Positions 1,889 through 26,679 of a stretch of DNA of 64,000 nucleotides are shown here, in pieces. Position 1 is the stretch's first letter. Each line of letters opens with the position of its first letter. Origin of the DNA: Roseibacillus sp. GTDB lineage: Bacteria > Verrucomicrobiota > Verrucomicrobiia > Verrucomicrobiales > Akkermansiaceae. The notes under the pieces were generated by a model. The model was not told the DNA's origin. It was given only the letters and a program-made list of their open reading frames with translations, and ran no database searches. Position numbers and translations under genes: made by a program. The DNA lies in NCBI GenBank assembly GCA_051251855.1, contig JBPOGI010000002.1, positions 736,001-800,000 on the forward strand. Direction: 5' to 3'.

Positions 1889-1905
1889 AGCGCGAAGTGG
1901 GCCAA
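1889..1905 (-). promoter_or_regulatory. sigma54-like -24/-12 element upstream of nirA
   Basis: Minus strand TTGGCCCACTTCGCGCT = GG-N10-GC; recurs at 7 island promoters. Confidence 0.6.
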
Positions 1906-1930
1906 GTCTGGTAAACACACAAATTCGACA

Positions 1931-1945
1931 ATGAATTTGATTCAT
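1931..1945. promoter_or_regulatory. LysR-type operator palindrome ATGAAT-N3-ATTCAT
   Basis: ATGAAT-TTG-ATTCAT; fits T-N11-A / AT-N11-AT; six copies in the island. Confidence 0.75.
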
Positions 1946-2316
1946 GTTAAAGATGCGCCGAGATTCGCTCGGCTCATTCTGGATGGGGTTAGCGAGTCTT
2001 GACTGAGATAGTTCCGTCGTCTCTATCAGTGAGGCTATGACGAGATGTTCCAGAGCTAGTGTCCCACGACATTAATTTTGTGACATTGGTTTTCTTTTTG
2101 ACCTTTGGGAAAAGCCTCCTTCCGTCGGACAGAAGAATGAGCTTGAGGCTTTTTTCCAATAACTGCGTTGTTCGTCAGTCATGAATCCCGATTCACTCCT
2201 TCCTCTCGCCTTGTTCTTGAAAAAAATCCTCTTCGCCAATACCACAAATTTAATCTCGTGAGTCACTAGGAGCTCCAAGGGCTTTCTTTGTCAAAGCCGC
2301 GCCTAATCGATGGTGG

Positions 2317-5300
2317 CTATTCTGTTTCTATCCTAATGCGGAAGAAAAGTTTTTGTTCTTCGGCGGTCGAGAAAGGTTGAGTGCTGCGCCAAGTGATGAA
2401 TTCGGTGCCATCGCCTTGATTCGCGGTCTCGGTCATGAGCACGTCGTCGTCCATTGAGGACCAGTTGACTAGGTCCGTAGAGACCTCAGAGAAAAGAAGG
2501 AGGTCACCGGCGTTGAGGTTTCTCTGAATGACAACAGCGGGGAAGTCTTGGAGAAGGCCGTCGACGAAGTAGTTCCCGAATCCGAAGGATTCCAAAAGGC
2601 AGTGGCCGCTGTTGGGGTCGTTGGGGTCGGTGCCGTTGGCATATTCGAAGTAGTCGGAAATACCGTCTCCATCAGTGTCGATGGTTTGGTCTCCGCTCAG
2701 ACTATTAGCGAGGAACCAGTCTTCCCAAGAGGTGCCGTCTGGTCCTCCGGGGTTGCCGTTGAAGGAGGGGTGAGCGCGCCAATTGGTGGGGATGCTGTGG
2801 TCCGGGTTGGAGGTTTCGATGTTGAGAACAAGGCTGTAGCCTTCGCCATCTGCCGCAGTGGGCCAGGGGATGACTTCGTCGTAGGTGAAGTCTTTGATAA
2901 CCGCGTCGGTGGAGTCGAGGAGGGTGATGCGCTCGCCAGAGTTGTTGAGATTCCCGGTGTATTCTCCCGCGATGAGGCCGGGAGCGACACTGGGATAGCG
3001 GTCGGTGAAGGCGGCTAAGTTGCTGACGACGACGACGCGCTCTCCGGGAGCAAGCTGGATGACGTTACTTTCGGTGAAGTCAAAGGTGATGCCGTCGGTG
3101 AATTTCGTGCCGGTGAGCTCGATGGGGTCGGTATCGGAGAGATTGAGCAGTTCGATGAATTCGTAGTCATCTTTATCAGTGGAAATGTCTGCAGCGGTGC
3201 CTACGGGATTGTAGTGGAGCTCAGAAATGACAAGGTTGGTAGCTGAGCCCGCGACACCAACAATGAACCCAAAGTCATTCAGAGCACTCCATGTGGAGGT
3301 GGAGGGGTTATAGACTCGCGATTTAACCCGTCCGCTCTGGGTAAGAGTGGCGGAGCCATTGGAAATATTGGCGTTCGAATTAACGGTGCCGCCGACGAGG
3401 CGAGGATCGGAACCGTCGGTGGTGTAGTAGACGATGCCCGAGCTGTTGGGGTTGGTGATCCCGAGGTTGAATCCAACGACTGCCGCGCCTCCGTTTTGCG
3501 AGTAAACGGGGGCGTCGATGAGGGGATAGAGAGGTTTAGAGCCATCATGATTGTAGGCTTGGAGTTGGGCGACCACGGTTGCGTTGCGTCCGATGCCGGT
3601 GGTTTGTTGGCTGATGCCCGCGTTTACAAAATTGAGGACGTCTTGGTAGGCATCGAGCCAGGTGTTGTGCGTGAAATTACCTCCCCAGCGGGCGAGTTCG
3701 GAGCAGATGGCTTCGGTGATGGTGTTGTAGCGGGAGTTGACGCGGTCGAGCGCGGCCGCATCGTCAAAGGCTCCTCCGTTGAAAAAGTGTTTGTGGACGC
3801 GGTCCGCGAAGGCAATGCGATATTCTTCATTCCAAGCGAGGTCCTCATGCATGTATTGGGGATTGCTTCGGTCAAAGCTGGAAGGGGGGCGGTCGGTGTA
3901 GATATCTCCCCAAGGTCCGACGCGGTTGTCGCTGTCGTCGATACGTCCACCGTTGCCGGCTCCCATGGAATGCTCTCCGTCGTGGACAAAGAAGCGAAAC
4001 CCATCCGTTCCATTGCTATCGCGCATTCCGAACCAGTTGTTGGAGGCACGAACAAAGGTGGAAAGTGCGGAGTCGTAGCTGCCAGTGTAGAAGATGGCGA
4101 GCATGTAGTCCGCAAGGTTGTCGACCTCCAGAAGGTCTGGATTGGTGGCGGGGTTGGGGTGAGGGGAGATGCCGTCGGAGTCGAGGCCTTGGATGGCGAA
4201 GTAGGCGGCGTTGTCGGTGGGACTGGCTCGCAGGGCACGGACCTTTTGCCAGAGGTCGAACCACGCGCCGTTGACGTCGCCATCGGTGGCTTCGGTGGTG
4301 TAACCGGCTGCGCTGGCTGCGGACTTGATGACGTCGTAGTCGTTTTCCTGGCCGCCGAGGTAGGTTTCTCCGTAGGCGGCTTCCGCGCGTTCTTGAGACA
4401 TAAAGAGGCCCCAATAGACGCCGTTGATGTAAAGTTGGTAATAGCGGCTGCGGGTGTAGGGCTGTTCCATGTCGCGCTGGGCGTCACGGCCGTGGATCTC
4501 GCGCAGGAAGGTGTTCTGACTGCTATTGTCTTTGGACCATGAGTAGTTCTGTGCGGTGCGGAGGTCGAGTCTTTCGAATTGAGAAGCCCCTTCGTCTTGG
4601 AACATGGGGTATTCGAGGTCTCCTTCGTAGTCGTTGGTGAAGTAGAAGCGGAAGGCGTGTTTGGGGTTTCCGCCAGAGCGGCTGGCTCCTCCGCGGATGC
4701 GGACTCCGCATGCGATTTGGAATTGGCCGGCTCCGAGTCCGCTTTCGTTAAGGAGTTCTACGGAGCAGGTGCGCTGCCAGCCGGCGCCGCGACTGGAGGC
4801 GTTGGAATTGATTCCGGTGGCAGAGGAGGAGAAGTCATCCTGCTCCATGACGAGTGAAATGGTGGGGATGTCGACGAGGCCGCTAATGATTTCTGGGTCG
4901 GTCACGCTGCCACCATCCATGCCGTATTCGTAGGATTGTCCGTTGACGTCGCTGGCAGGGAATCCGAGCGAGACGGCGTGGTTCAGATCCTGAAGAGGAA
5001 CGTCATTGGGGAAGATATAGGTGTGGGTGTCGACGTTGGTGGGTGCGAAGTCGGTGAGGAAGGCCGCCGCTCGAACGGCGGTGGTTTCCGAGATGAGGAA
5101 AGGGCTGGTGAAGACTTGGCCATGGTTGGCGGTCGGTTCTGAACCATCGGTGGTGTAGCGGATCTCTGCGGCTGGGTTTTCAGTCGAGATAGTGAGGAGG
5201 AAAGGAGTATAGAAAATTCCTCGATCGATATCAAAGCTGGTGTCGCCCAAGAAGCCTTGCACGCCGCCGAAATTAGAACCACCGGGGGTGGGCAAGGGCA

Positions 5301-7824
5301 TGTAGCCAATTTCTTGTTGCTCGCCCCAAGCGCCGTAGGAGGCATCTGTTTCTTGGGGTGGATAGGCTGGTTGGAACTCGTGGACCAGTTCATAGCCGCC
5401 GTTGCCATCGTCTTTATAAAGGCCGAGGTATTCACCGCCGCTGGAGAGCTTGAAATTGGTGTGAAACTCGTCGATGCCGAAGGTGGTGTTTTTGTCGGAG
5501 GCAAAGAGGACAAGGAAGCGACCATTTTCGAGCGAATACGAGGGGATCGCGTATTTATTGGGGGCAGAGATATCGTCTGTGAGATAGTAGCCGGCGAGGT
5601 CAATGGTTCCGCCACTTCCGTTGTAAAGCTCGATCCAATCCGATGAGTCGTCCTCGGCGTCATCAAGGGTCCTGTCGTTACTCGCCATGAATTCATTGAT
5701 GACGACATCGTCGGTAGGGATGGGGTTCTGAACTCCGGTGACTTCGAACTGGGTATTGATGCCGTTTCCGTCGAGAAAAAAGACCTCGGCGGCGTGACCA
5801 CCAGTAGCTTCGAAATGGACGTATTCAATGGGGTAAGAACCGACTGCAAGATTGATGCTGCCATTGCTGGTTATCGGGCCATGGGTGTCGTCGTCGACGA
5901 TGACATCTTGGCCATTGATACGCAGACGGCCCCCGTCGTCGTTGTTGATTCCAAAAGTGTATTCGCCGGGGGTGTTGACGATGAGGGTGGCGGTAGCTCG
6001 GAGGACAAAGTGGTCGAGGTTGGGGCCTAAGGGGGCGATGATATCACCGGAAAACTCGCCACTGTTTCCAGGGCCGTAGTTGATTTCATCCACGAAAGTG
6101 GTGGTAGCTTCGGCAAGGACATTATTGCCTGCCAGTAAGTCGTCAGCGGCCGCTAGTGTGTTGACCGTTCCGGAGGAGGTACGTTGGAGGACGGTCCACT
6201 TATCGGTGTCGATGCCGATAGCCGCCAGAATGGAGACAGATACGTTAGCGGTGGTCTGGCCGAAAGTGTTCGTGGCAGTGAGAGTATAGGTGGTCGAGGA
6301 GTTAGGAGTATCACTCGCGGTGCCAGAGGAGGCGTTGACTGATCCGATGTTGGGAGAAATTTCTACCGAGTCTGCGTCGCTTACCGACCAAGAAAAATCG
6401 ACCGTTTCGCCGAGAGCTGGAGTGCCATTATCGACAACGAACGAAGCGATGGTAGGCGGAGACCCGGTGGTGACTGTTGCGGAGGTAGAGGCCGAACCGG
6501 AAGGGTTTGTAGCAGTGATGGTGTAGGTGGTATCGAGAGAGATGTTTTCGACGAGGAGGGAGCCGTTGCCATTTTCATCAGTTTCCGCGAAGACGTTTCC
6601 AATGCCTGGAGAAATGCTGAGGGAGGAGCCTCCAGTGCTGGTCCAGGTGAGGGTACTTGAGCCTCCGATGGCAATACTCGCTGGAGAGGCGGAGAGGGTG
6701 ACGACGGGGGGGACGTCGACATAAACTGTTACGTCGGCGCTGGTGCTGTTAGGGCCGTCAGTGCCGGTGAGGGTGTAGGTGGTGGTGGCAGGAGGCGAGA
6801 CAGTAAAGGAGGTCTGACCTGTCACGTTCACCGGCGAAGGGCCGCCAGTGAGAGTGAGGGTGGTAAAGCCAGAGGCAGTCCACTCTAGGAGGCTATTCTG
6901 GCCGCCGGCAATGTAGTCAGGCGAGGCGGTGAAGGAATCAATCTGAAGCTGGGAGTTAACGAGACCACTTCCGGTATCGCTAAAGGCAAAAAAGTCAGCT
7001 CCTCCCCCAGGATTCGAGGCTGCATAGGTCCACGTGTCGGACCCAATTTGCAAATCTCCTCCTGCCGCGCCTAAATCGTGATGGTTTCGCAGTTGATTGA
7101 AGGTGCCGAGGTCGTAGAGAAAATTAGGATCGGTGGCGAGAGCGTAGAGAGAGGCCGCCTCTTCGTCGACGAAGGGCTCGTCGAAGATGCCGACATCATC
7201 GATGCCACCCTTCCATTCCCGGAGAGCGCTCACTTCAGGGTTGGCTCCGATGAGGAGGGAGAAGCGATTGTTGGCGTTCCCTTCATTGAGTCGAGGGGTG
7301 TTGGTATCGGTCTCAACGAGCACGCCATCTACATAGAGCCGGGCCTCTACGTCGTCATCTGTGACGCCGAGGATGTGGTGCCATTGGCCATCGTTGACGC
7401 TCCCTCCATCGAGGTCTCCATCCCCTCCGTAGTAAGCAATTTGGGAAGAGTTGCCGCTGCGTCGTGCGATGCGATACTCATCGCCATCACCCTTGGAGAG
7501 GACAGTTTGCCAGCCAGTGTCCCAAGCATCGACCTGAATCCAAACGGAAACGGTGAGGCTATCCAGCCTTCTTCTGGTGTCGCCGCTGTCATCGATGTCG
7601 AGATAGTTTGAGCCTGTAAGACGGAGGCCATCGCCAAACACTCCTGGAGAGTAGTTGGATGCACCTACCCAGGTAGCAGTATCGTCGTTGTTGCCTGCGG
7701 AGGCCGAGTCTGCCACGGAGGAACCATTGGTTGATTCCATTTGCCAGTAACCAACGAGGGCATCGGCGAGGCAAGAAGATGCCAAGGCAGGGAGAAGTGA
7801 GAGTAAGACTAGGGTTTTGTACAT
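2317..7824 (-). CDS. Giant secreted multidomain protein: LamG, Ig/PKD-like repeats, PA14, lamin-tail domains, FN3-associated domains, CotH kinase-like domain, C-terminal DxDGDG-EY repeat and FFR-type tail
   Basis: Signal peptide; LamG (GQWHHI...LYVDG...GGIDDVGIF); three TTYTLTAT repeats; PA14 (YTFGINNDDGGRLRING); LTD (VVINEFMASN...DWIELYN; LVISELHYNP...EFIELLN); IRYTTDGSEP; CotH-like LYINGVYWGL...SNNWF...HDGE. Confidence 0.85.
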   Translation of the reverse strand: MYKTLVLLSLLPALASSCLADALVGYWQMESTNGSSVADSASAGNNDDTATWVGASNYSPGVFGDGLRLTGSNYLDIDDSGDTRRRLDSLTVSVWIQVDAWDTGWQTVLSKGDGDEYRIARRSGNSSQIAYYGGDGDLDGGSVNDGQWHHILGVTDDDVEARLYVDGVLVETDTNTPRLNEGNANNRFSLLIGANPEVSALREWKGGIDDVGIFDEPFVDEEAASLYALATDPNFLYDLGTFNQLRNHHDLGAAGGDLQIGSDTWTYAASNPGGGADFFAFSDTGSGLVNSQLQIDSFTASPDYIAGGQNSLLEWTASGFTTLTLTGGPSPVNVTGQTSFTVSPPATTTYTLTGTDGPNSTSADVTVYVDVPPVVTLSASPASIAIGGSSTLTWTSTGGSSLSISPGIGNVFAETDENGNGSLLVENISLDTTYTITATNPSGSASTSATVTTGSPPTIASFVVDNGTPALGETVDFSWSVSDADSVEISPNIGSVNASSGTASDTPNSSTTYTLTATNTFGQTTANVSVSILAAIGIDTDKWTVLQRTSSGTVNTLAAADDLLAGNNVLAEATTTFVDEINYGPGNSGEFSGDIIAPLGPNLDHFVLRATATLIVNTPGEYTFGINNDDGGRLRINGQDVIVDDDTHGPITSNGSINLAVGSYPIEYVHFEATGGHAAEVFFLDGNGINTQFEVTGVQNPIPTDDVVINEFMASNDRTLDDAEDDSSDWIELYNGSGGTIDLAGYYLTDDISAPNKYAIPSYSLENGRFLVLFASDKNTTFGIDEFHTNFKLSSGGEYLGLYKDDGNGGYELVHEFQPAYPPQETDASYGAWGEQQEIGYMPLPTPGGSNFGGVQGFLGDTSFDIDRGIFYTPFLLTISTENPAAEIRYTTDGSEPTANHGQVFTSPFLISETTAVRAAAFLTDFAPTNVDTHTYIFPNDVPLQDLNHAVSLGFPASDVNGQSYEYGMDGGSVTDPEIISGLVDIPTISLVMEQDDFSSSATGINSNASSRGAGWQRTCSVELLNESGLGAGQFQIACGVRIRGGASRSGGNPKHAFRFYFTNDYEGDLEYPMFQDEGASQFERLDLRTAQNYSWSKDNSSQNTFLREIHGRDAQRDMEQPYTRSRYYQLYINGVYWGLFMSQERAEAAYGETYLGGQENDYDVIKSAASAAGYTTEATDGDVNGAWFDLWQKVRALRASPTDNAAYFAIQGLDSDGISPHPNPATNPDLLEVDNLADYMLAIFYTGSYDSALSTFVRASNNWFGMRDSNGTDGFRFFVHDGEHSMGAGNGGRIDDSDNRVGPWGDIYTDRPPSSFDRSNPQYMHEDLAWNEEYRIAFADRVHKHFFNGGAFDDAAALDRVNSRYNTITEAICSELARWGGNFTHNTWLDAYQDVLNFVNAGISQQTTGIGRNATVVAQLQAYNHDGSKPLYPLIDAPVYSQNGGAAVVGFNLGITNPNSSGIVYYTTDGSDPRLVGGTVNSNANISNGSATLTQSGRVKSRVYNPSTSTWSALNDFGFIVGVAGSATNLVISELHYNPVGTAADISTDKDDYEFIELLNLSDTDPIELTGTKFTDGITFDFTESNVIQLAPGERVVVVSNLAAFTDRYPSVAPGLIAGEYTGNLNNSGERITLLDSTDAVIKDFTYDEVIPWPTAADGEGYSLVLNIETSNPDHSIPTNWRAHPSFNGNPGGPDGTSWEDWFLANSLSGDQTIDTDGDGISDYFEYANGTDPNDPNSGHCLLESFGFGNYFVDGLLQDFPAVVIQRNLNAGDLLLFSEVSTDLVNWSSMDDDVLMTETANQGDGTEFITWRSTQPFSTAEEQKLFFRIRIETE

Positions 7825-8067
7825 CTTGATTGGTTTTTTGGGGGCTGGGGGGCTTCCCTGCCAAAATCTTTACAACAAAGGTCGACCATGACCAGCGTAA
7901 GTCAACGTGGAAAAGGTGGTGGTTTTCTTTTGTAACGAACTCTCTCTGAGTGCGTCACATCATTGTCTTGTCCGAATGCGTCGGGATGAGATCCTTTGTG
8001 ATGAGATGCCATTGTTATTTCTAACGAGCTCCCTGCTCATTAGAATGAGCTTTGCAGGAATGATGGC

Positions 8068-9483
8068 TTAAAGTCCTCGGAGTTCTCTCGTGGCGTCGCC
8101 GATTTGCTTGGTGGGCGCGCCAACGCGTTTGAGCATGCCGTGGTAGAGGCTGGCGAGCGGGGTTCCGTCGCCAGCGTCGAGATGACGACCAGTCTTTAGT
8201 TGGCCATTGGCTCCTCCTCCGAGGATGATGGGAATGTCCTTGGTTGCGTGTTGGTTACCGTCGCGGATACCCGAGCCAAAGAGGACCATAGAGTTGTCGA
8301 GGAGGGTGGCGTTTCCTTCCGGAATGTCCTTCATGCGCTGGAGCATGTATGCGTATTGCTCGGTGTGCCAGGTGTTGATCTTTTGATACTGATCGAGTTG
8401 GCCCTTGTTGTTTTTATGATGAGAAATGGAGTGGTGAGAGCCATTGACGCCTTCGAGAAAGGAGAAGTTTTTCCCTGACACGGCGTTGCCAAACATGAAT
8501 GTCGAGACGCGCGTGGAGTCAGTCCAAAAGGCAAGGACCATGATGTCCATCATGAGGCGGACGTGTTCGGTGGGGTCGAAACGTTGGAGCGAGCCAAAGT
8601 CGCTTTTGCCCGAGCTGCCTCCTGCTTTATCGATGCGCTTGTTGAGAATTTCGAGTTGCTTGAGGGCCGCCGGGGTGAGGTTTTGACCAGCTCCGAGTTG
8701 GGAGGCTTCGTTTTCGATGCGACGTTCGACTTCGCGCAGGTTTTCGAGGTATTGATCCAGTTTATGGGTGTCTTCGTTTCCAAGGGAGCGCTTTAAGCTC
8801 TTGGCGTCTTCGAGGACGATATCGAGAATCGATTGGTCTTCGTTGCCGTTAGATGAGCGTCCTCCGGCTTTGTTTCGATTGCGGAAAATACGGTCGAAGG
8901 CCACGCGGGGATTGATTTCGCAGGGGAGGGGGACATCGGGCTTTTTCCAAGAAATGTGAGAGCCGTAGAGTCGGGTGAGATTGACGTTGCGGTCGATGCC
9001 TGAGCTGACGGGTTGAGTGCCGAGTTCCATCGAGGGAAGGCGTGTTTCGCGGCCGATGGCTTCGGCGGCGATTTGGTCAATAGAGATTCCGTTGGCACTG
9101 ACGTTCGAGCCCACGGTCTTTTCGATGGTGGTGCAGGTCAACCAGCTGGCGGTTTTGTAATAGTGACCGTCGCCCTTGTGAGAGGGTTTGTTTGTGAGGC
9201 CACTGATGACCGTGATGTCATTCTTGAGCGCTTCGAGAGGCGAAAGAATGGGAGAGAGCTCATAGCTAGTACCGGTTCCCTTGGGGGTCCACTTGTCGGG
9301 GCGAACGCCATTGGGCATGAAGAGACAAGCCATTCGGACAGGGTCACTGGTGGCTGCGCCGGGAGCCCCCAGAGCGCTCATGGGACGCATTGCTTCGAGG
9401 AAGGGGAGCGCTAAAGTGGCACCCATGCCTTTGAGGGTTTGTCGGCGTGAGAGTTGCCAGCGATTGGATTGGATGTTGGCCAT
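8068..9483 (-). CDS. DUF1552 (HXXSHH) family protein with Tat-like signal
   Basis: N-terminal SRRQTLKG twin-arginine motif, LALPFLEAM, FMPNGV, HHSISHH, TLLDNSMVLFGSG. Confidence 0.85.
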   Translation of the reverse strand: MANIQSNRWQLSRRQTLKGMGATLALPFLEAMRPMSALGAPGAATSDPVRMACLFMPNGVRPDKWTPKGTGTSYELSPILSPLEALKNDITVISGLTNKPSHKGDGHYYKTASWLTCTTIEKTVGSNVSANGISIDQIAAEAIGRETRLPSMELGTQPVSSGIDRNVNLTRLYGSHISWKKPDVPLPCEINPRVAFDRIFRNRNKAGGRSSNGNEDQSILDIVLEDAKSLKRSLGNEDTHKLDQYLENLREVERRIENEASQLGAGQNLTPAALKQLEILNKRIDKAGGSSGKSDFGSLQRFDPTEHVRLMMDIMVLAFWTDSTRVSTFMFGNAVSGKNFSFLEGVNGSHHSISHHKNNKGQLDQYQKINTWHTEQYAYMLQRMKDIPEGNATLLDNSMVLFGSGIRDGNQHATKDIPIILGGGANGQLKTGRHLDAGDGTPLASLYHGMLKRVGAPTKQIGDATRELRGL

Positions 9484-9484
9484 G

Positions 9485-11347
9485 TTATTGGGTGCTTGAA
9501 CGATTGAGAAAGGGGCGAGATTGAACGACTTCGTGAATGAGGGTGTGCATACTGTAGTCCTCTTTTTCTAATTTGGCCACAATGCTCACGACCACGGCTT
9601 CATCGTAGTATTCGAGACCGCGTCCAGTAGCGTAGGAGAGCATCTTGCGGGTGATGTTTTGAGCGAATTTCTGTTTGCCTGAAATGAGGAGTTCTTTGAG
9701 TTCAGCGGGGGAGGAGAAGAGGAAGTCTCCTGGCATGAGGACGGCGCTAGAGTCGATCGGCTTTCCGTTGGCGTCCTTTTCTCTCCAGCGACCAATAGCG
9801 TCGAAGTTCTCAAGGCTGAATCCGAGGGGGTCGATGCGGGCGTGACAGTTGGCGCAGGCAGGTGCGCTACGGTGGATGTCGAGTTGTTCGCGAAAGGTCA
9901 GTCCGTCGGCCATGGTGTCGTCTGCGGGGAGTTCGCCTGCGTCAGGTGGTGGTGGTGGTGCGGGATCGCCGAGGAGAGCGTCGAGAATCCAGACGCCTCG
10001 CAAGACAGGACTGGTGCGCATGGGAAGAGAGGTAGAAGTGAGGACGCTGCCCATACCGATGACCCCGCCGCGTGACTTGTTGTGGAGAGTGACCTTTTGC
10101 AGTTCCTCGCCTTGGACGGATTCCTTGAGCCCATAGTGTTGAGCGAGAGCGGCATTGGCGAAGGTGTAGTCGCTATCGAGGATGTCGGTAATGGGACGGT
10201 CTTTTTGGATAATATGAGAGAAGAATTCGACGCTCTCGTAATACATCGCCTTGCGCAGGGACGGGCTGAAGCTTGGGAAGCGATCTTTGTCGGGGTCGAC
10301 TTCATCAATCATTTTGTCGAAACCAATCCATTGGCCCGCGAAGTGGCGAGGCAATGCGGTCGCCTTGGGGCTGGCGATCATGCGCAGGGTTTGTTCTTTG
10401 AGGATGGCGGGGTCACTCAGTTTTCCAGCGTCGGCAAGGCGGAAGAGTTCACGGTCCGGCATGGAGGACCAGAGGAAGTAGGAAAGGCGGGTGGCGATTT
10501 CGAAGTCGTTGAGCTTCCACTCTTCTTTGTCGGATTCGTTGTGCTCGGAGATGAAGAGGAATCTGGGGTTGATGAGCAGGGCGGTGAGGGGCGCGCGCAG
10601 GGAGTCCTCGTAGGACTTGCCTGCTTGCAAGCCACGCGTGAAGGCGTTCATCAGGGGCGCGATATCGTCGTCGCTCACACGGCGGCGGTAGGCGAGGGAG
10701 GCGTGGTAGCTGAGGACCGTTCTAGCTGATGCCGGAGCTTCCTTGGGTGTCTTCGGTTGTTCGAAGATGACGGTGCTTTTGAGCTTTGGGTTTTGATAAA
10801 CGGCGGCGACGACCTTTTTTGCGGCGGCGAGGTATTTTTCCAAGAGGGAAGGGCTGGAAAAGAGGGCGTCGGCGGTGTTGTCAAACCCTTCTCCTCCTGC
10901 ACCATCTGCAGGAAAGCCGCGGCTAGGATTGAAGTTCACTCCAAAGAGATCGCGAACGGTATAGTGATACTCGTTTCGGTTGAGGCGGCGCAAAGTGACG
11001 CGGCCGGCTTTTTGAGGGACGTCACCAGACTTGATGCGTGCGCTGATTTTTGAAAGGGCAGCGATGAGCTGTTGGCGTTCCTCGTCAGTGGGGAGGACGT
11101 CTTCATCCTCGGGAGGCATGTCCTTGTATTTGACTTGGTCGACGATGTTGTCGAGGAGGCCATGCTTCTTAAAGGCAGCATTGAGACTGTCGATGTCGTG
11201 CAGGGCGATGCCGCCTTTCTGCTTGGTTTCTCCATGGCAGGAGACGCAGTGCTTCTCGAAGAAGGGGCCGGTGGTCTCGGCGAAGTCATCCGCCCAGCCT
11301 GTGGTGAGGAGGGAGACTGAGAAGGCCAAGAATGAAAGCGTGCGCAT
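9485..11347 (-). CDS. Planctomycete-type cytochrome c / DUF1592-1588-1587-1585-1595 protein
   Basis: CVSCH near N-terminus, RRLNRNEY, EIATRLSYFLWSSMPD, RTSPVLRG, CANCHARIDPLGF; usual partner of DUF1552. Confidence 0.85.
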   Translation of the reverse strand: MRTLSFLAFSVSLLTTGWADDFAETTGPFFEKHCVSCHGETKQKGGIALHDIDSLNAAFKKHGLLDNIVDQVKYKDMPPEDEDVLPTDEERQQLIAALSKISARIKSGDVPQKAGRVTLRRLNRNEYHYTVRDLFGVNFNPSRGFPADGAGGEGFDNTADALFSSPSLLEKYLAAAKKVVAAVYQNPKLKSTVIFEQPKTPKEAPASARTVLSYHASLAYRRRVSDDDIAPLMNAFTRGLQAGKSYEDSLRAPLTALLINPRFLFISEHNESDKEEWKLNDFEIATRLSYFLWSSMPDRELFRLADAGKLSDPAILKEQTLRMIASPKATALPRHFAGQWIGFDKMIDEVDPDKDRFPSFSPSLRKAMYYESVEFFSHIIQKDRPITDILDSDYTFANAALAQHYGLKESVQGEELQKVTLHNKSRGGVIGMGSVLTSTSLPMRTSPVLRGVWILDALLGDPAPPPPPDAGELPADDTMADGLTFREQLDIHRSAPACANCHARIDPLGFSLENFDAIGRWREKDANGKPIDSSAVLMPGDFLFSSPAELKELLISGKQKFAQNITRKMLSYATGRGLEYYDEAVVVSIVAKLEKEDYSMHTLIHEVVQSRPFLNRSSTQ

Positions 11348-11422
11348 CAAACACAGATACAAGGCCTTGATGCGGTCTATTTCATCAAAAATCGCCTCGT
11401 TCTTTGGTAGCGCTGGCCTTTT

Positions 11423-13239: not shown

Positions 13240-13249
13240 GGTTCACCTC

Positions 13250-13266
13250 AGCTCATTGTGGGCCAG
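13250..13266 (-). promoter_or_regulatory. sigma54-like -24/-12 element upstream of nrtC
   Basis: Minus strand CTGGCCCACAATGAGCT; 11 nt between GC and ATG. Confidence 0.6.
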
Positions 13267-13292
13267 AAAGAAGGAGTGGTCGCGATTCTGCT

Positions 13293-13307
13293 ATGAATAC
13301 AATTCAT
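13293..13307. promoter_or_regulatory. LysR-type operator palindrome
   Basis: ATGAAT-ACA-ATTCAT upstream of nrtC. Confidence 0.75.
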
Positions 13308-13446
13308 GGATAGGGCTTGTATTCTTGCTGGGGGTTCATTTTGGTTGAAGGGGCGGGGTTGCAGGAGCTCGACGCGGAGTCATTGAGGCTGCGGAGTGGA
13401 AGCAGAAAATTTTCTGTTTTGAGTTTTGGTGAGACGGACCGGTGGG

Positions 13447-13468
13447 GCGGACTAAAGTTCCGTGGTCC
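13447..13468 (-). repeat. REP-like palindrome
   Basis: Minus strand GGACCACGGAACTTTAGTCCGC, intergenic. Confidence 0.4.
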
Positions 13469-13484
13469 GTTTGGGCCGGGTGCG

Positions 13485-13513
13485 AAAAAAAGCTCCGAGT
13501 GGGCTCGGAGCTT
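13485..13513 (-). terminator. Rho-independent terminator after the globin gene
   Basis: AAGCTCCGAG-TGGG-CTCGGAGCTT perfect stem with adjacent A-tract (U-tract on minus strand). Confidence 0.85.
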
Positions 13514-13537
13514 CTTGAAGGGTGAATGAGATACTTG

Positions 13538-14518: not shown

Positions 14519-14542
14519 TATCCAAAGTATCCAGGTGAATTG

Positions 14543-16634: not shown

Positions 16635-16642
16635 GAAGTTTT

Positions 16643-18655: not shown

Positions 18656-18666
18656 TCTTTGAGTTG

Positions 18667-18683
18667 AGCATTCGGGTAACCAA
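18667..18683 (-). promoter_or_regulatory. sigma54-like -24/-12 element upstream of the oxidoreductase-cytochrome operon
   Basis: Minus strand TTGGTTACCCGAATGCT; 12 nt between GC and the GTG start. Confidence 0.55.
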
Positions 18684-18779
18684 TAGTTTGGAGCTTGCTT
18701 CGATTCTTTAGGAAAGTGGGACCCCGAAAGAATGAGTTTTGTTAATGCTCTATTTCGCTCCTGAAAATCGCGGAAATGG

Positions 18780-18794
18780 ATGATTGGATTTCAT
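18780..18794. promoter_or_regulatory. LysR-type operator palindrome (variant)
   Basis: ATGATT-GGA-TTTCAT. Confidence 0.6.
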
Positions 18795-18989
18795 GAGAGG
18801 TGGCCTTGGTTGATCGTCACTTTGATGGGCACTATCTCCGACTGCGCTCCCCTCGGTGATGATGGCTCGAGGGAGCGAGTGTCTCTTATACGCGAGTGTG
18901 AATTTGGTCGTCTCGACTGGATGAGTAGGGCTTCTATCCAATTGGACTCAGACTCACTGACTAGAGGGCTGTGCTACTTGTTAAGTGAC

Positions 18990-19019
18990 AAAAAAACTCC
19001 GACGAATGAATCGTCGGAG
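18990..19019 (-). terminator. Rho-independent terminator after nrtB
   Basis: CTCCGACGA-ATGAA-TCGTCGGAG stem with adjacent A7 tract. Confidence 0.85.
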
Positions 19020-19051
19020 CTTTGAGAAGAGAAAAAACTTGAGACCTACGT

Positions 19052-20686
19052 CTAGGCGGTGGCGGAACCGTCATCGAAGGAGACGAGGCGTTGGAGTATA
19101 ATCATCAAGCGGTCGAGGAAGAATCCAATGACTCCTACCACGAAGCAGGCGAGGATGATGTTGGCAAAGGATTGTGAGGAGCCATTTTGATATTCGTCCC
19201 AGACATACTTGCCGAGTCCGTCGGATGAGGAAAGGGCTTCAGCGGCGATGAGGACCATCCAGCCCACTCCGAGTGAGATGCGCAGGCCGGCGAAGACAAG
19301 CGGAAGGGAGGAGGGAATGACGATTTTGAAAAGGCGGGACCAGAAGCCGAGCTTGAGAACCTTGGCGACATTGAGGTGGTCTTTATCGATGGCAGAAACG
19401 CCGAGCGCGGTGTTGACCAACGCAGGCCAGAGGGCGCACATAGCAACGGTGCAGGCCGAGAAGATCATGGCGGGGTTGGTTTGCAGAAAAGACAAGGGGT
19501 TGAGGGAGTCGTTCATGAAAACGAAGAGGGGATGGCTCGCTGGATCGGGGAGGAAAAAGGCGCCGACGATGATTTGGAAAATAAGGAGCCAAACGACCGG
19601 TGATACTGGGCGGAAGATTGAAATGAGAGGCGTCATGGAAGCCATGAAGATACGATTGAGTCCGCACATGATACCGAGAGGAATGGCTACGACAGCGGCA
19701 ATGAGGAACCCTACGAAGACGGTGGCGATAGAGCGCTTAGTCTGCCAAAAAATGGTAGCGGTGCGAGGGTAGGTTTGTTCGCTCGTGCTGGCAGCGCGTT
19801 CGCTGTTTTTGACGACAGACTTCGCTTCTTTGAGGGCTTCTTTTCCAGTAGCAGCGGCGGCGAGTTGCTGGGTGTCTTCTTTGGCCTTGGCGATGAGGGT
19901 TGCTTCTTTGACGCTGCGGTTTCCAGTAGTGAGAATGTCGATGAGCTTCTTGTAGTGCTGCACTTCGTCGGCTACCTTGTTCGTTGCGAGTTGAGATGAT
20001 TTGACCTCTTCAGGAGGGTTGTCTCGAATGAGGTCGAGCTCGTCTTTAAGCAGGGTTTCTGCATTTTTTTCCTTCTCTTCGAAGGCGGTGCTTTCTTTCA
20101 CGAGAGCGATGAGTTTTTCAGGGGATGCTTCCTTCAGCGCGACCTTTTCTGCGAGGGTTTCTAAGGCGAGGTCTCGAGCGTCTTCGGCGGCATTATTCTT
20201 CGCCTTGATGGCATCATAGCGAGCTTGCACGGGGGCGAGCTTGGCGTTCATTTCTTCCTTGGAGGAGGCTGCGATTTCGACTGCCTTTTTTTGGAGCTTG
20301 GCTTGCTCGGCTTCGAGGGTGATGAGTTCTTTCTTGGCGCGTTCGATTTCTTCCAACCGTGGCTTGCCAGTGAGGCCGAAGGCGTTCTCCTTCTCGTTCT
20401 CGCGCTCATTAAAACGTCGGGCGTCGTTGAACGCGGTGCTGACGGCAGCTGGACCGGGGACTTCGCCGGACTTGGTCTTCAGTTTAGTGATGACGGTGGC
20501 CCAGATGAAGATGAGAATGGAAACAAAGACGATAGGAACGACCATGTATTGGGCGATGTCTTTGACTTGTTTCTGAGGCTCCTCGCCAAAGAGGAGTCTA
20601 ACGGGCGGGTCGAGAACCTTAAAGCCGCTGACATCGATGACCTTGAGAATTCCGTATTTGATTTTGTCCTTGGGTGAGTCTGACAT
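19052..20686 (-). CDS. nrtB: Nitrate ABC transporter permease (NrtB-like) with long coiled-coil insert
   Basis: GEVPGP, IFRPVSPVVWL, LWPALVNTALGV, GLRISLGVGWMVLIAAE, GLGKYVWDEYQNG; start MSDSP (20686). Confidence 0.85.
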   Translation of the reverse strand: MSDSPKDKIKYGILKVIDVSGFKVLDPPVRLLFGEEPQKQVKDIAQYMVVPIVFVSILIFIWATVITKLKTKSGEVPGPAAVSTAFNDARRFNERENEKENAFGLTGKPRLEEIERAKKELITLEAEQAKLQKKAVEIAASSKEEMNAKLAPVQARYDAIKAKNNAAEDARDLALETLAEKVALKEASPEKLIALVKESTAFEEKEKNAETLLKDELDLIRDNPPEEVKSSQLATNKVADEVQHYKKLIDILTTGNRSVKEATLIAKAKEDTQQLAAAATGKEALKEAKSVVKNSERAASTSEQTYPRTATIFWQTKRSIATVFVGFLIAAVVAIPLGIMCGLNRIFMASMTPLISIFRPVSPVVWLLIFQIIVGAFFLPDPASHPLFVFMNDSLNPLSFLQTNPAMIFSACTVAMCALWPALVNTALGVSAIDKDHLNVAKVLKLGFWSRLFKIVIPSSLPLVFAGLRISLGVGWMVLIAAEALSSSDGLGKYVWDEYQNGSSQSFANIILACFVVGVIGFFLDRLMIILQRLVSFDDGSATA

Positions 20687-20713
20687 AGCGAAGCTGTGAG
20701 CTGGCCGAACTCT

Positions 20714-20730
20714 TGCAGCCCTCGGGCCAA
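20714..20730 (-). promoter_or_regulatory. sigma54-like -24/-12 element upstream of nrtB
   Basis: Minus strand TTGGCCCGAGGGCTGCA. Confidence 0.65.
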
Positions 20731-20777
20731 GTGGCGGAGTTGGGCTGAGAATTTTGAGAAGAGATGAACTCGACTCC

Positions 20778-20792
20778 ATGAATTTGATTCAT
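20778..20792. promoter_or_regulatory. LysR-type operator palindrome
   Basis: ATGAAT-TTG-ATTCAT, identical to the nirA copy. Confidence 0.75.
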
Positions 20793-20805
20793 GAATTTTT
20801 CCGTT

Positions 20806-21693
20806 TTACGGTTTTTGAATGATAATACGGAAGCCGATGTTGTAGCTACGGCTTTCGGGGCCAGAGCTGTAGCGGTAGGCTGACCGGCAGCTATTGGCGG
20901 TTCGGTTCCAAGTTCCCCCGCGAATATTTCTACCGTCACCTGTTTCGGGGCCTTGGGGATCGTTCCCGCCGCTGGCTTTCTCGGAATACCAGTCGGCACA
21001 CCATTCGTAGAGGTTGCCGTGCATGTCGTAGAGTCCCCATGCGTTGGGTTCGAAGCTTTTTACCTCGGTCGTTTTTTCGCGGTACTCGCCTTCTTCAGTG
21101 AGACCGTAGGGCTTCTTGCCATAGAAGTTTGCTTGTTCAGCGCTGAGGGTGTTACCGAATGAGAAGACGGTGCGCGTGCCTGCGCGGCAGGCGTATTCCC
21201 ATTGGGCTTCGGTGGGGAGGGTGTAGGCGAGTTCCTTTGGAAGAACTCCGGACTCGTGTTCAGTTTGGGTAAGGATCTTGGCAAAGGAGATGGCGTCTGA
21301 CCAGTTGACGAAGCTCATGGGTTGATTGGGTCCTATTGCTGAAGCTTCTGCGACCAAGTTAGCTCCGCGCCCGATAGGGCCTTCTTTGATGTCGATTTGC
21401 TGTTGGATGGTCTTTCCCATGACGGCGAGCCATTGTCCTTGCGTAATCTCGGATTCAGACATGAGGAAGTTCTGCGAAATTTTCACGGAGACTTCGTCTT
21501 CGTCGTTGCCACGGCCTTTTTCCGTTTCGGGGCTGCCCATTACAAATTCGCCGGCAGTGATGGGGAGCATTTTGAGGCCGATGCTGTTGTTGTAGGGTTC
21601 GGTGAGAAGTCTTTCGTCAGCAAGAGAAGTATGGGTGCCGAGAGCGAGGGTTACCACGGCGAGAAAGGGGAGGGGCCAGAGTTTTTGCTGCAT
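20806..21693 (-). CDS. Exported formylglycine-generating-enzyme (SUMF1/NirV/PvdO-like) domain protein
   Basis: Signal peptide, GEFVMGSP, LPTEAQWEYACRAG, PNAWGLYDMHGNLYEWC, RGGTW, IGFR. Confidence 0.85.
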   Translation of the reverse strand: MQQKLWPLPFLAVVTLALGTHTSLADERLLTEPYNNSIGLKMLPITAGEFVMGSPETEKGRGNDEDEVSVKISQNFLMSESEITQGQWLAVMGKTIQQQIDIKEGPIGRGANLVAEASAIGPNQPMSFVNWSDAISFAKILTQTEHESGVLPKELAYTLPTEAQWEYACRAGTRTVFSFGNTLSAEQANFYGKKPYGLTEEGEYREKTTEVKSFEPNAWGLYDMHGNLYEWCADWYSEKASGGNDPQGPETGDGRNIRGGTWNRTANSCRSAYRYSSGPESRSYNIGFRIIIQKP

Positions 21694-21707
21694 TATGGGA
21701 GGATGAG

Positions 21708-21724
21708 AGCAGAAAGAGAACCAA
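21708..21724 (-). promoter_or_regulatory. sigma54-like -24/-12 element upstream of the FGE-domain gene
   Basis: Minus strand TTGGTTCTCTTTCTGCT; only a half-site (TTG-ATTCAC at 21743-21751) of the LysR box nearby. Confidence 0.5.
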
Positions 21725-21778
21725 GGAGCACGAAGGCAGCTTTTGATTCACGAGTGGAATTACTTTAAACTATGAAAC

Positions 21779-21812
21779 AAAAAGACCGTCTGGAGATGAA
21801 CTCCAGACGGTC
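21779..21812 (-). terminator. Rho-independent terminator after nrtA
   Basis: GACCGTCTGGAG-ATGAA-CTCCAGACGGTC 12-bp perfect stem with adjacent A-tract. Confidence 0.85.
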
Positions 21813-21837
21813 AAATAACCAGGATAAGTTGTTTCGA

Positions 21838-23199
<1,362 letters not shown>

Positions 23200-23206
23200 T
23201 GTTTGG

Positions 23207-24283
23207 TTAGTTTTCTTTGACTCCTGGAACGGAGGTTGAGAGTTGTTCTTGGGCTTGCTCGAAGAGGTCCATGCGGAAGATGAAGTCGTTGGGGAGCTGT
23301 TGCCCTTTTCTAAGAAGTCCCGAGAGGCGGACTCCTTCGCGCAGCCACGAAGCTGTCTTGCTAGTGGGAGCGTTGACTTCCTTGTCGTGAAAGATGTGAA
23401 AGTCGGGAAAGGACTTTTCGGGGTTTCCACTGGTGGCAGGAAGGCGACCCAAGAGGCTGAAGGGGAGGGAATCTTGGATAAGGTTCATTCCGGGTTCGGC
23501 TGAGAGGTAAGTGAGAACTTCGTTGTGATTGCTTGGATTCTGGCAATACTGGCAGGCTTCCAAGAGGGCGCTAGTGAGGGATCGGAGCTCGTTAGGATGG
23601 CTTTCAGCAAAGCTGAGAGTGGCAGCGAGTACTTTCTCGGGGTGGCCGTTAGAGAGTTCTATCGAGTTGGAAACGCACCAGCCGATTCCTTGCATCATGG
23701 CCACCGAGTTCCAAGGTTCGCCCACACAGCAGCCGTCAATATGACCGTGGGAAAGACTACGAATCATGATTTCTGGTGGAAGAGAAATGATTTCGACGAA
23801 GGGGTGTTTTGCAATTCCATTTCGCTTGAGCCACAGGAGAAGGAGCGAGTGATGTGAAGAGCAGGGATGCACGGAGGCGAGGGTGAGGGGGGACTCCTTG
23901 CTGTAGTTTTCTTCGATGAAAGCTAGGAATTCTCCAGGCTTATCGAACATGTCACGGGGAATCTTATTAGAGAGGGTAAGGCCGTTACCGTTGGCGCTAA
24001 GCACGAGGGGAACGACCATTTCTTTGGGGATTGTGCCGACGCCGTGATGGATGGCGAGGGCGAGAGGTCCGAGGCATTGGGCTGCGTCGAGCTCGGCGTG
24101 AACGAGTTTTTCGCGAACGGTGGCCCAGCCTGGCTCTTGGGAGGTGACAACGTTGACACCATGCTTTGCAAAGAGTCCCTTCTCTCGAGCAACGATGATC
24201 GGAGCGCAGTCAATGAGGGGGATATACCCCAATCGGATTGGCTGGTTAGTGATTGTGAGAAGGTTGGAATCAGGTGAAACCAT
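23207..24283 (-). CDS. Cytoplasmic NrtA-paralogue (NasS-like nitrate/nitrite sensor)
   Basis: [31 protein letters not shown]; no signal peptide. Confidence 0.75.
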
Positions 24284-24294
24284 GCCGTTCTCTC

Positions 24295-24311
24295 AGCCGG
24301 AGTCGTGCCAA
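24295..24311 (-). promoter_or_regulatory. sigma54-like -24/-12 element upstream of the NasS-like/nrtA operon
   Basis: Minus strand TTGGCACGACTCCGGCT, containing the canonical TGGCACG. Confidence 0.7.
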
Positions 24312-24359
24312 ATGGCAAAAATGGCATATTTGGTGCTATGGGAAAGTATCTCAACAATG

Positions 24360-24374
24360 ATGAACCCCATTCAT
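24360..24374. promoter_or_regulatory. LysR-type operator palindrome overlapping the LysR start codon
   Basis: ATGAAC-CCC-ATTCAT in the divergent intergenic region; position typical of LysR autoregulation. Confidence 0.7.
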
Positions 24375-25332
24375 GTACCGTGAATTACCAGACCTGCGCC
24401 AAGTAAGAGCCTTTGTGGCGCTTGCAGATACCCAGTCCTTTACGCGGGCGGCTGAGACTTTATTTTTGACGCAGTCGGCGGTAAGCCATTCGATTCGCAG
24501 TCTTGAGCAGCAACTGGAGGTTCAGTTGGTGGAACGTTCGGGCAAGAAAATTGCTCTCACGCAGGACGGAGTTGTTTTTCTTCGACGTTGTCGTTCAGTG
24601 ATTAGCGAGTTGGAGCAAGCCACCCAAGAAATGGAGGCGCTTAAGCGTTGGGGCCAAGGCAGAATTCGATTAGGGGCGACCCACACGCTTTGCCAGTATC
24701 TCTTGCCGACAGTGCTGCGGGAGTTTCGCGATTGTTTTCCACGTTGTGAAGTTCACATCGAGTCGGGCGACACGGCGGAACTCATGCAAAAGCTTGAGGA
24801 TGCTCAGCTCGATTTGGTTTTGGGGTTAGGTGGTCGCACACCCAACTGGGCCGCTTTTCTCCCCGTGTTCGATGATGAGCTGGTTTTCGTGGTGTCCGCG
24901 CAGCACCCTTGGGCGAACAAAGTAGAGATTCCTTTGGAGGAAATTGGCAGCGAGTCTTTTCTAATTTATGCGAAGAAGAGTGAGACCTATCGGCTCATTC
25001 GCAATCACTTCGAGGGTCTTGGCGTCAAGCTAAGGACCACGCTCAACCTAGGTGCGATGGAGGCCATTAAAGAAATGGCACGTATTGGAATTGGGGTTGG
25101 GATCGTTTCGCCTTGGGTGGCTCGAAAGGAATTGGAGCGAGGTCAACTCGTGCAGGTTCCCATTCGAAAGGAGCCTCTCACCAGGGAGTGGGGGGTCTTT
25201 TGTCACGAGAGTAAGAAGCTTTCATTGGTCGAAGATACTTTCGTGGGAATCTGTGAGGTGACGGCTCGGACCTTCAATGCTTCACCAACGGCCCCAACTG
25301 AAAAAGCCGTCGACCTTGCGGCGACGGCTTAG
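24373..25332 (+). CDS. LysR-family transcriptional regulator
   Basis: HTH SFTRAAETLFLTQSAVSHSIRSLE, substrate-binding domain, EAIKEMARIGIGV. Confidence 0.95.
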   Translation: MYRELPDLRQVRAFVALADTQSFTRAAETLFLTQSAVSHSIRSLEQQLEVQLVERSGKKIALTQDGVVFLRRCRSVISELEQATQEMEALKRWGQGRIRLGATHTLCQYLLPTVLREFRDCFPRCEVHIESGDTAELMQKLEDAQLDLVLGLGGRTPNWAAFLPVFDDELVFVVSAQHPWANKVEIPLEEIGSESFLIYAKKSETYRLIRNHFEGLGVKLRTTLNLGAMEAIKEMARIGIGVGIVSPWVARKELERGQLVQVPIRKEPLTREWGVFCHESKKLSLVEDTFVGICEVTARTFNASPTAPTEKAVDLAATA

Positions 25333-25355
25333 AGTCAGTTGTTAGAGGAGGTTTC

Positions 25356-26642
25356 TTAGAACTTGTAAGAGAGGTCGACAGTGACTTGCTTGATATCAGC
25401 ATAGGCGCTGCTCTCGTCTCCGAAGAAGTAGGCCGCTTTGATGAGACCTGACAGGTTGTCAGTGAATTTCTTCGCCAAGATGAGGTCTGCTTCGTAGCCG
25501 TATGTTGCGCTGAAGCTGTCATCGGCAAAGTAGTGAAGGAAGCCTTTGAGAGTGACGCCTCCAGGAAGCCCGGGCTGCACGAGGCCTAGATATACATCTG
25601 AAAGACCTTCGTAAGTTCCTCCAGGTCCATTGCGAAGTCCAATGCGGTCGAGGATGAACGCATCCGCAAATCCGTTGTAGGCGTGAACGGTCGCGAAGGG
25701 GGTTTTGAAGTCGTCTTCAAGATACTCAAGTCCGGCAATGAGGGAGGTTTTACCCACTTTATGGGTATATTTTACGTGCCCGTAGAAGGCTTCGTAATCA
25801 CCTCCAACTGTGCTGGTCCCGTCTTGAAAAGCTATTTCTCCATAGAGCCCACCGATTGTTGCGAAGGCACCGTAGGTGTTGCTCTCGCCGACGTTGGTGT
25901 TGTTGTCGACGTCAATGAGATATGCGTATCCACCGACGGTTCCAAAGTCAGCGTTGTAGGTGCCGTCAATGAAGTGGAAGTCACCCTCGAAATCATGGAG
26001 AGGAGGTCCGGGCAGAGCGTCATTGGCATCATTTCCGAAGATACGTTGCACGCGATTGGAGTAGGCATATGAGAGCGAGAAGTCGTCGTTCTTGTAGGCG
26101 ATTTGGGCTGCGTCGAAGGTCTGTTCGTTCTGACGCCAGCCGACGTTACCAATGAAAGCGGCGCTGTTGCGAATGATGCGTTGGCGTCCTACTTTGGCGA
26201 GAAAGCCATCTTGCTTGTATTGAACCCACGCACGGTTGAGTTCTGCGTTCTGAGGGTCGCCGATGGGGGTGTTACCTGATACGTAAGGGTAAGTTGACCG
26301 ACTGAATGGATTGCCGCTAGGAAGAGGGTTACTGGAGTAATCAGCCACTCCTGCGCCGGTGAACTCTCCTTCGGCGAAGGCGCTGAATCCGCCGAAGTCG
26401 CCGAGAAGGAGGCCAACTCGTGCCCTAGCGGTGAGAGCGTTTGAGGGGTCGAGGCCGTCAACTTCGCGGAACTCATACCGAGTATTGAGATTGACGCTTG
26501 GGGTAAGCCATTTGAAGGCATCCGGTTCGGAAGCTACGACAGGCTGCTCAGGAATATCGACGAAAGTCTCGCCTGCAAAAGCTGGAGAAGAGAGGCTAAG
26601 CGCAAGAGTGCAGCGACAAATATATGGATGGATAGTTTTCAT
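25356..26642 (-). CDS. Alginate-export-family outer-membrane beta-barrel (putative nitrate/nitrite porin)
   Basis: Signal peptide, RYE, ELNRAWVQY, KVGRQRI, FIGNVGWRQNEQTFDA, TPFATVHAYNGFAD, C-terminal YKF; start MKTIH. Confidence 0.8.
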   Translation of the reverse strand: MKTIHPYICRCTLALSLSSPAFAGETFVDIPEQPVVASEPDAFKWLTPSVNLNTRYEFREVDGLDPSNALTARARVGLLLGDFGGFSAFAEGEFTGAGVADYSSNPLPSGNPFSRSTYPYVSGNTPIGDPQNAELNRAWVQYKQDGFLAKVGRQRIIRNSAAFIGNVGWRQNEQTFDAAQIAYKNDDFSLSYAYSNRVQRIFGNDANDALPGPPLHDFEGDFHFIDGTYNADFGTVGGYAYLIDVDNNTNVGESNTYGAFATIGGLYGEIAFQDGTSTVGGDYEAFYGHVKYTHKVGKTSLIAGLEYLEDDFKTPFATVHAYNGFADAFILDRIGLRNGPGGTYEGLSDVYLGLVQPGLPGGVTLKGFLHYFADDSFSATYGYEADLILAKKFTDNLSGLIKAAYFFGDESSAYADIKQVTVDLSYKF

Positions 26643-26662
26643 ATGATGGTCCGAGAACAGGA

Positions 26663-26679
26663 AGCGTTTGCGGTGCCAT
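26663..26679 (-). promoter_or_regulatory. sigma54-like -24/-12 element upstream of the porin
   Basis: Minus strand ATGGCACCGCAAACGCT. Confidence 0.65.

Follow-up and report, generated by a model that had tools for sequence, protein, structure and literature searches.

In this work, we analyzed a 64,000-nucleotide stretch of a Roseibacillus genome (hereafter the window; contig C6, positions 736001-800000; genome 4.96 Mb, 95% complete), in which a nitrate/nitrite assimilation cluster spans window positions 106-26642 and carries −24/−12 motifs of the sigma54 type paired with a palindromic box, ATGAA-N5-TTCAT. The cluster encodes a LysR-type regulator, by which the closest named relatives are Roseibacillus species (84-93% identity). 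We hypothesize that the boxed motifs are likely sigma54 promoters, co-activated by this LysR in the manner of cyanobacterial NtcB and melted by an AAA+ activator that acts without an enhancer; to this combined reading we give slightly more than even credence.

A preliminary description of the window had listed seven exact TGG-N10-GCW sites, and all seven are present, on the − strand and 10-27 nt ahead of likely start codons. Its distances from the palindrome to the GG (27, 28, 49, 50, 50, and 98 nt) are right and equal gaps of 26, 27, 48, 49, 49, and 97 nt to the T of TGG, the measure used here. With this T counted as −26, box centers fall at about −83 (gap 49), −73 (gap 39), and −61 (gap 27). 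The window contains nine boxes with at least 9/10 bases, six of them paired with promoters. The predicted promoter of nirA (1889-1904, − strand) has a perfect box at gap 26 (1931-1945, center about −60), and boxed nirA promoters also occur in the relatives G005, G019, G032, and G146. At the ATP-binding cassette (ABC) ATPase genes, the predicted promoter (13250-13265, −), whose predicted start falls on the ATG, has a perfect box at gap 27 (13293-13307, center about −61) that is kept in G001. The predicted promoter of the permease gene (20714-20729, −), with a perfect box at gap 48 (20778-20792, center about −82) above which non-coding DNA extends just 13 nt, is kept with this gap in G001, G003, G004, and G008. 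The predicted promoter of the nasS-like/nrtA operon (24295-24310, −) has a weak −12 element and a perfect box at gap 49 (24360-24374, center about −83), and that of the porin gene (26663-26678, −) a 9/10 box at gap 49 (26728-26742) with a weaker site 21 bp downstream. The predicted promoter of the nirB-like operon (18667-18682, −) is kept in G002, G003, and G004; its 9/10 box lies at gap 97 (18780-18794), G004 having one at gap 96. The distance of 98 nt thus holds, but as a third spacing class it was rejected, since a second, degenerate box (8/10; 18732-18746) exists at gap 49, with equivalents at 49-50 in the same three relatives. The site ahead of the FGE-sulfatase-domain gene (21708-21723, −) is a doubtful match, boxless and missing in both relatives that carry this gene at that place; it is probably due to chance and was rejected as a regulon member. 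Finally, the inventory of seven had overlooked an eighth, conserved site on the + strand, the predicted sigma54 promoter of lysR (24322-24337), which is present in 22 of 45 lysR loci. It stands back to back with the nasS-like promoter, 11 bp apart, and the perfect box at 24360-24374 covers its +13 to +27, overlapping the lysR start codon.

With transcription expected to begin about 11 nt past GCW, the predicted starts in the window are near 1878, 13239, 18656, 20703, 24284, and 26652 (−) and 24348 (+). Two side observations concern these promoters. At 13239, 18655, and 24283, the predicted start of transcription coincides with the start codon or misses it by at most 1 nt, and many relatives have ATG or GTG 9-12 nt past GCW, which suggests leaderless sigma54 transcripts. 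The 11-bp back-to-back spacing (24295-24337) is also kept in many relatives; such promoters would exclude each other, and a toggle between lysR and the nasS-like operon is possible.

The promoter motif by itself is weak evidence, whereas its pairing with the box is not chance. TGG-N10-GCW has 101 matches in the window vs. 68 ± 8 in shuffles, and upstream of 3656 predicted genes it is in no clear excess over the spacings N8, N9, N11, and N12. Genome-wide, 86 such sites lie 5-45 nt before predicted starts (gene calls, with approximate start codons, come from a hexamer model of ours), and a box (at least 9/10, within 130 nt) accompanies six, all in the cluster. The six pairings reported earlier are therefore the sole cases among comparable sites. 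That sigma70 polymerase with ordinary LysR activation is at work here, the GG/GC motifs being incidental, would fit the missing genome-wide enrichment and the poor state of several −12 elements. Nevertheless, TGGCA and GCT are kept across distant families while the bases between them vary, the motif stands before genes of five types, the stretch 11000-27500 holds 3 sigma70-like matches vs. 6 expected, and the genome has one rpoN, so we find this explanation hardly credible.

Conservation was followed in the surroundings of the LysR orthologue at 40 loci (733,675 bp, 84 boxes). The gap is 48-50 nt in 40 of 76 box-to-TGG-N10-GC pairs, while the control spacings N8, N9, N11, and N12 gave 17, 29, 25, and 33 pairs, with at most four at any one gap. 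This spacing recurs ahead of nasS-like, porin, permease, nirA, and nirB-like genes, some of the boxed genes are operon-internal in other genera, and boxed promoters probably arose more than once. Family f11 has a gap of 39, one helical turn shorter; a loss of sigma54 control in this family was considered and rejected, since it has rpoN and its promoters show GGTA besides the gap of 39. In an order-wide sample, the pattern occurs in 46/69 genomes with the LysR vs. 5/81 without it, or 47/70 vs. 4/80 once a LysR just below threshold, beside the box, is counted; three of the four remaining exceptions lie ahead of unrelated genes. A reversed-pattern control gave 0 in all 151 genomes. Within genus g26, the proportions are 24/24 and 0/6, and in a class-wide sample 25/57 and 3/144. 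Such co-occurrence is support for binding of the box by LysR, not proof.

The box as a predicted LysR operator

The box has the T-N11-A dyad form, and a weaker second site follows 22 bp downstream, with a mean score of 5.3 vs. 3.83 ± 0.14 (1000 shuffles, highest 4.32; n = 57 boxed promoters, leaving out five loci judged chance matches, G143, G261, G296, G238, and G260). A strong site followed by a weak one is the layout described for LysR proteins (PMC11495319). The second site falls at gap 27, so the two spacing classes of the preliminary description reflect a single tandem operator, measured from its distal or its proximal site. The regulator itself (24373-25332, + strand; PF00126 and PF03466) carries the recognition helix TQSAVSH, with which the helix TQSTISR of NtcB aligns. 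NtcB (8H3V) was the second-best PDB hit in one search and the third in another, 5Y2V being the best. The solved NtcB box reads ATGC-N7-GCAT-N7-ATGC-N7-GCAT, and NtcB is described as contacting the alpha subunits of the polymerase and failing when shifted by 5 bp (bioRxiv 10.1101/2022.10.10.511513). In many relatives, the box overlaps the lysR start, including some without a sigma54 site at lysR (G038, G034, G027, and G028). Its co-occurrence with LysR, the 22-bp spacing of its tandem T-N11-A sites, its overlap with the lysR start, and its likeness to the NtcB box make the palindrome very likely the operator of the local LysR.

A paralogous LysR (33% identical) stands by a cyanate cluster at C1:36733-42668, which comprises cyanase, an ABC transporter, a NasS-like gene, and the paralogue. 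The same two-site positions, ahead of a sigma54-type promoter, are here filled by GTGAA...TTCAC, and the recognition helix has a Gln-to-Pro change; this operator was seen in two genomes, the source genome and G022. A NasS-like gene accompanies lysR in 34 of 40 loci, usually divergently, as well as in the cyanate module. The NasS-like protein may serve as the anion sensor of LysR, replacing the usual NasT partner. A crude regular-expression search over the genome gave no ANTAR/NasT match, a test that leaves the absence of NasT unproven.

Boxes also occur outside the two clusters. The region between two divergent amtB genes (C11:119580) holds a perfect box, accompanied at +22 by a half-site; a sigma54-type site lies 95 nt below the box, whose position at amtB varies among relatives (gaps 3-111). 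A general role of the box as a nitrogen-regulon site was rejected, because it is not found at glnK, glnA, or rpoN and takes scattered positions at amtB. At C1:201456-201600, a 9/10 box stands at gap 25 from a weak sigma54-like site, upstream of a gene for a CysJ-like flavoprotein. This gene is a candidate regulon member; its counterpart in G268 is boxed at gap 49.

AAA+ activators and the opening step

The absence of an AAA+ activator, described earlier for the window, extends to its whole contig. The genome encodes four AAA+ activators with a GAFTGA-type loop, three with an HTH_8 domain and one, at C1:1837595-1838896, consisting of receiver and AAA+ domains only; an activator lacking the helix-turn-helix (HTH) had been guessed, and here it exists. 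Of 41 genomes, 36 yielded an orthologue. The tail behind the AAA+ domain, compared in 30 loci, is deleted in eight, open-ended in two (G007 and G030, left out of the locus analysis), and longer in the rest, where it ranges from a degenerate to a clearly intact HTH (the HTH profile included G031, so the score of G031 is circular). Since the same truncation recurs in eight of 30 loci, the missing HTH is not an assembly error, and a frameshift as its cause was rejected. The HTH is also lost in G011, where LysR was not found (this genome is only 69% complete). The phospho-acceptor is D in the source genome and D, E, and A in 17, 9, and 2 of 28 orthologues. As an observation in its own right, one conserved activator across Verrucomicrobiales thus combines stepwise HTH decay (intact, degenerate, deleted) with frequent loss of the phospho-acceptor Asp. 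In G001 and G006, rpoN follows the gene directly. No kinase gene was seen beside it, although no proper genome-wide kinase search was made, and an Atlas search returned only generic sigma54-activator clusters.

On the other hand, the activator that we call type D (C12:5051-6451) has a conserved HTH in each of the 10 genomes checked, and G016 and G175 possess only two activators, type D and the orthologue of the HTH-less one. By this conservation, the box could be the ordinary enhancer of type D, with LysR doing something else, and tandem sites near −80 would fit enhancers in general. However, the pattern tracks LysR, does not occur at these positions of glnK and amtB, covers the lysR start also in relatives that have no lysR sigma54 site (G038, G034, G027, and G028), has an NtcB-like 22-bp spacing of its T-N11-A dyads, and varies in sequence with the paralogous LysR. 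We therefore consider an enhancer of type D very unlikely.

Sigma54-type sites stand at glnK in 27 of 30 loci and at amtB in 24 of 28, with or without LysR, and at the operator positions (gaps 26-28 and 48-50) of these genes no box scores above 7. Two motif searches upstream of glnK and amtB found nothing convincing that is shared, while the same method recovers the box in a control. Moreover, coding sequence, mostly lysR itself, starts at most 13 nt above the box in 29 of 45 boxed promoters. Enhancer-independent activation is plausible, because no motif emerged at glnK and amtB and little non-coding room is left above most boxes. Of the two possible openers, the HTH-less protein at C1:1837595-1838896 seems somewhat likelier than the HTH-bearing core activator. 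Strong but boxless sigma54-type sites also precede rpoN (C1:260001), glnK (C1:1411785), and a short type II-like glutamine synthetase gene (C1:1847127), and rpoN may be autoregulated.

The T at −14 belongs to the sigma54 consensus. It is found in 20 of 57 boxed promoters vs. 21/27 at glnK and 24/24 at amtB (45/51 together) and 21/22 at lysR, so the boxed promoters, which mostly miss it, are predicted to bind the polymerase poorly. These weak −12 elements, together with the alpha contacts and phase dependence of NtcB, suggest that LysR stabilizes the polymerase. We propose that a LysR tetramer would occupy the sites centered near −83 and −61, or a dimer the site at −61 alone. When nitrate or nitrite is sensed, perhaps through the NasS-like neighbor, LysR would contact RNA polymerase and stabilize the sigma54 closed complex on the weak promoters, and an activator encoded elsewhere would open this complex without an enhancer. 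The same binding would block the back-to-back promoter of lysR itself (autorepression).

Under the opposite sign of control, the sigma54 promoters would otherwise be switched on from solution, LysR on the box would repress or anti-activate them, and a ligand would relieve the block. AtzR, a LysR, reportedly acts against sigmaN promoters, and the box does take a blocking position at lysR and, with gaps of 3-7, at amtB in G007, G008, and G018. Such repression is nevertheless rather unlikely, because the main sites at −83 and −61 are clear of −24/−12, boxed promoters are weaker in the −12 element than unboxed ones, and simple occlusion would need no 48-50-nt gap kept across families.

The preliminary description had suggested that a LysR may give specificity to sigma54 promoters, for example by recruiting or gating an HTH-less activator. 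Its first part stands, in that the promoters look real and the box is very likely the operator of the local LysR, but the recruiting or gating is less likely than help to the polymerase. LysR would here dock the HTH-less activator directly and serve as its detachable DNA-binding domain. This would suit an activator that is HTH-less across most of the genus yet keeps a short helical stretch past the AAA+ lid, as well as the fixed distance between box and promoter and the scant room for a separate enhancer. We still regard docking as unlikely: the box architecture is the same where the activator keeps its HTH (G175), and the HTH is lost in the 69% complete G011, in which LysR was not found. The glnK and amtB promoters must also be served by an activator but carry no box at these positions, and both the NtcB precedent and the weak −12 elements speak for polymerase contact.

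Several points weigh against co-activation by LysR with enhancer-independent opening. G280 (94% complete, fragmented) has a true boxed nirA promoter, and no LysR orthologue was detected in it. The strict pattern is missing in 23 of 70 LysR-positive genomes (e.g., genera g20 and g29), in G031 the box occurs unpaired, and at the gap-26 and gap-27 promoters of the window no partner site was seen at gap 49. The sampled genomes are kin and not independent; as LysR is lost together with the whole cluster, co-occurrence alone cannot separate the two. Type D, present in all the genomes checked for it, may be the activator, and enhancers that differ between lineages would escape a motif search. Lastly, sequence cannot tell activation from repression. 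A wider extension of the proposal, which we hold more tentatively and give less than an even chance, is an inverted sigma54 logic throughout Verrucomicrobiae. A DNA-blind AAA+ protein would be a general melting motor, and LysR proteins would pick weak −24/−12 sites from about −83 and −61 by recruiting either the sigma54 polymerase or the motor.

Gene content of the cluster

Besides lysR, the cluster holds nirA and the nitrate ABC genes, a NirB-like oxidoreductase gene accompanied by those of cytochromes and a globin, and genes for two NMT1_2 proteins and a likely porin. The nirA-family nitrite reductase gene (106-1872, −; NF007126, above cut-off) leads an operon that runs left past the window. 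The downstream open reading frames, read by eye, encode flavodoxin-like and 4Fe-4S proteins and, just beyond the left edge, a molybdopterin oxidoreductase that is likely the nitrate reductase. The two nitrate ABC ATP-binding genes (11423-13239, −; TIGR01184) code for ntrC/D-type ATPases, not regulators. Three unrelated genes at 2317-11362 (a CotH/lamin-tail protein and DUF1552/DUF1592 genes) split them from nirA, while in G001 the ATPase genes and nirA are adjacent with none of these between. The NirB-like NADH oxidoreductase with a membrane tail (16643-18655, −), together with a multiheme cytochrome, a cytochrome c, and a globin encoded downstream of it, forms one unit inside the assimilation cluster (13538-18655); electron supply or nitric oxide handling is a possible role for this unit.

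Further along are the nitrate ABC permease gene of the ntrB/nrtB type (19052-20686, −), the FGE-sulfatase-domain gene (20806-21693), and the gene for an NrtA-type substrate-binding protein with a hydrophobic N-terminus (21838-23199, −; PF13379). A second NMT1_2 protein (23207-24283, −; PF13379) has no evident signal peptide, and NasS-like is our name for it. A terminator-like hairpin lies 3′ of nrtA (21784-21812, −), which would account for internal promoters in the cluster. An alginate-export-family protein, likely an outer-membrane porin (25356-26642, −; PF13372), stands at the right end. Elsewhere in the window, the GC skew rises to 0.3-0.44 within 28000-44000 vs. about 0.2 in the rest.

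Comparison with known systems

Control of sigma54 is taught as control of the melting step by an enhancer-bound ATPase, and LysR proteins are taught as partners of sigma70. If true, class-wide LysR co-activation from fixed, phased positions would mean control of sigma54 at the recruitment step, and it would offer an answer to how activators without a DNA-binding domain choose their targets among many sigma54 promoters. For a group that is abundant but little studied, it would also define the nitrate (and cyanate) regulon, with exact operator and promoter predictions that are directly testable, as cultured relatives exist (Roseibacillus persicicus and R. ishigakijimensis).

The component parts have precedents, namely NtcB at sigma70-type promoters, the HTH-less FlgR and CtcC, and, reportedly, AtzR acting against sigmaN promoters. 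Group 5 FlgR of Helicobacter and CtcC of Chlamydia are described as receiver and AAA+ proteins with a GAFTGA-type loop and no DNA-binding domain, like the one found here (PMC7175178, PMC3162934, PMC7482065). Unlike in those systems, the HTH-less protein here shares its genome with three other activators and many predicted sigma54 promoters, and specificity must therefore have another source. Likewise unlike FlgR and CtcC, the HTH decays stepwise along the lineage and fewer than all orthologues (17/28) have D as phospho-acceptor. AtzR of Pseudomonas sp. ADP is reportedly a LysR acting on the sigmaN promoters PatzR and PatzT, one of which naturally lacks upstream activation sequences. It reportedly represses or anti-activates, whereas here the weakness of the −12 elements and the position of the box suggest co-activation that spans a regulon of several promoters and an entire class. 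The ligand-sensing, non-AAA+ factors ArgR/AhrC are said to boost the sigma54 promoters astC and roc; they are not of the LysR family and reportedly work with an enhancer-bound activator. In Borrelia, BosR was proposed as a second DNA-binding factor, together with Rrp2, at the enhancer-less sigma54 promoter of rpoS (PMC3037356), but its role was later reinterpreted as RNA stabilization (PMC11109971). BosR is thus no longer a firm precedent and serves as a caution for the LysR case. The main text of a survey of sigma54 regulons makes no mention of LysR in the passages covered (PMC12316311), and a Methylacidiphilum paper, in the passages covered, notes only a suggested link of a cbbR-type gene with nitrate genes (PMC3404531). 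In the literature covered, which left most subscription papers and curated regulon databases outside its scope, neither this regulon nor the co-activation of sigma54 promoters by a LysR was found described.

The closest counterpart is the NtcA-NtcB pair at the cyanobacterial nirA promoter, where NtcB, like the LysR of the window, is described as a LysR co-regulator of nitrate assimilation genes. Its two 15-bp ATG...CAT palindromes, 7 bp apart, are matched upstream of the nitrate genes here (ATG-N9-CAT); the distal position with strict helical phase is shared, and the recognition helix is similar. The fourth base of the box is A here and C in the NtcB box, which matches the His of the helix in place of the Arg of NtcB, and the tandem is centered at about −72 instead of −82. 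The layout matches that of an NtcB-like regulator, although orthology is unproven since 5Y2V is the best PDB match. NtcB works at a sigma70-type promoter with NtcA of the CRP family, whereas the core promoter here is of the −24/−12 type and the partner must be an AAA+ activator.

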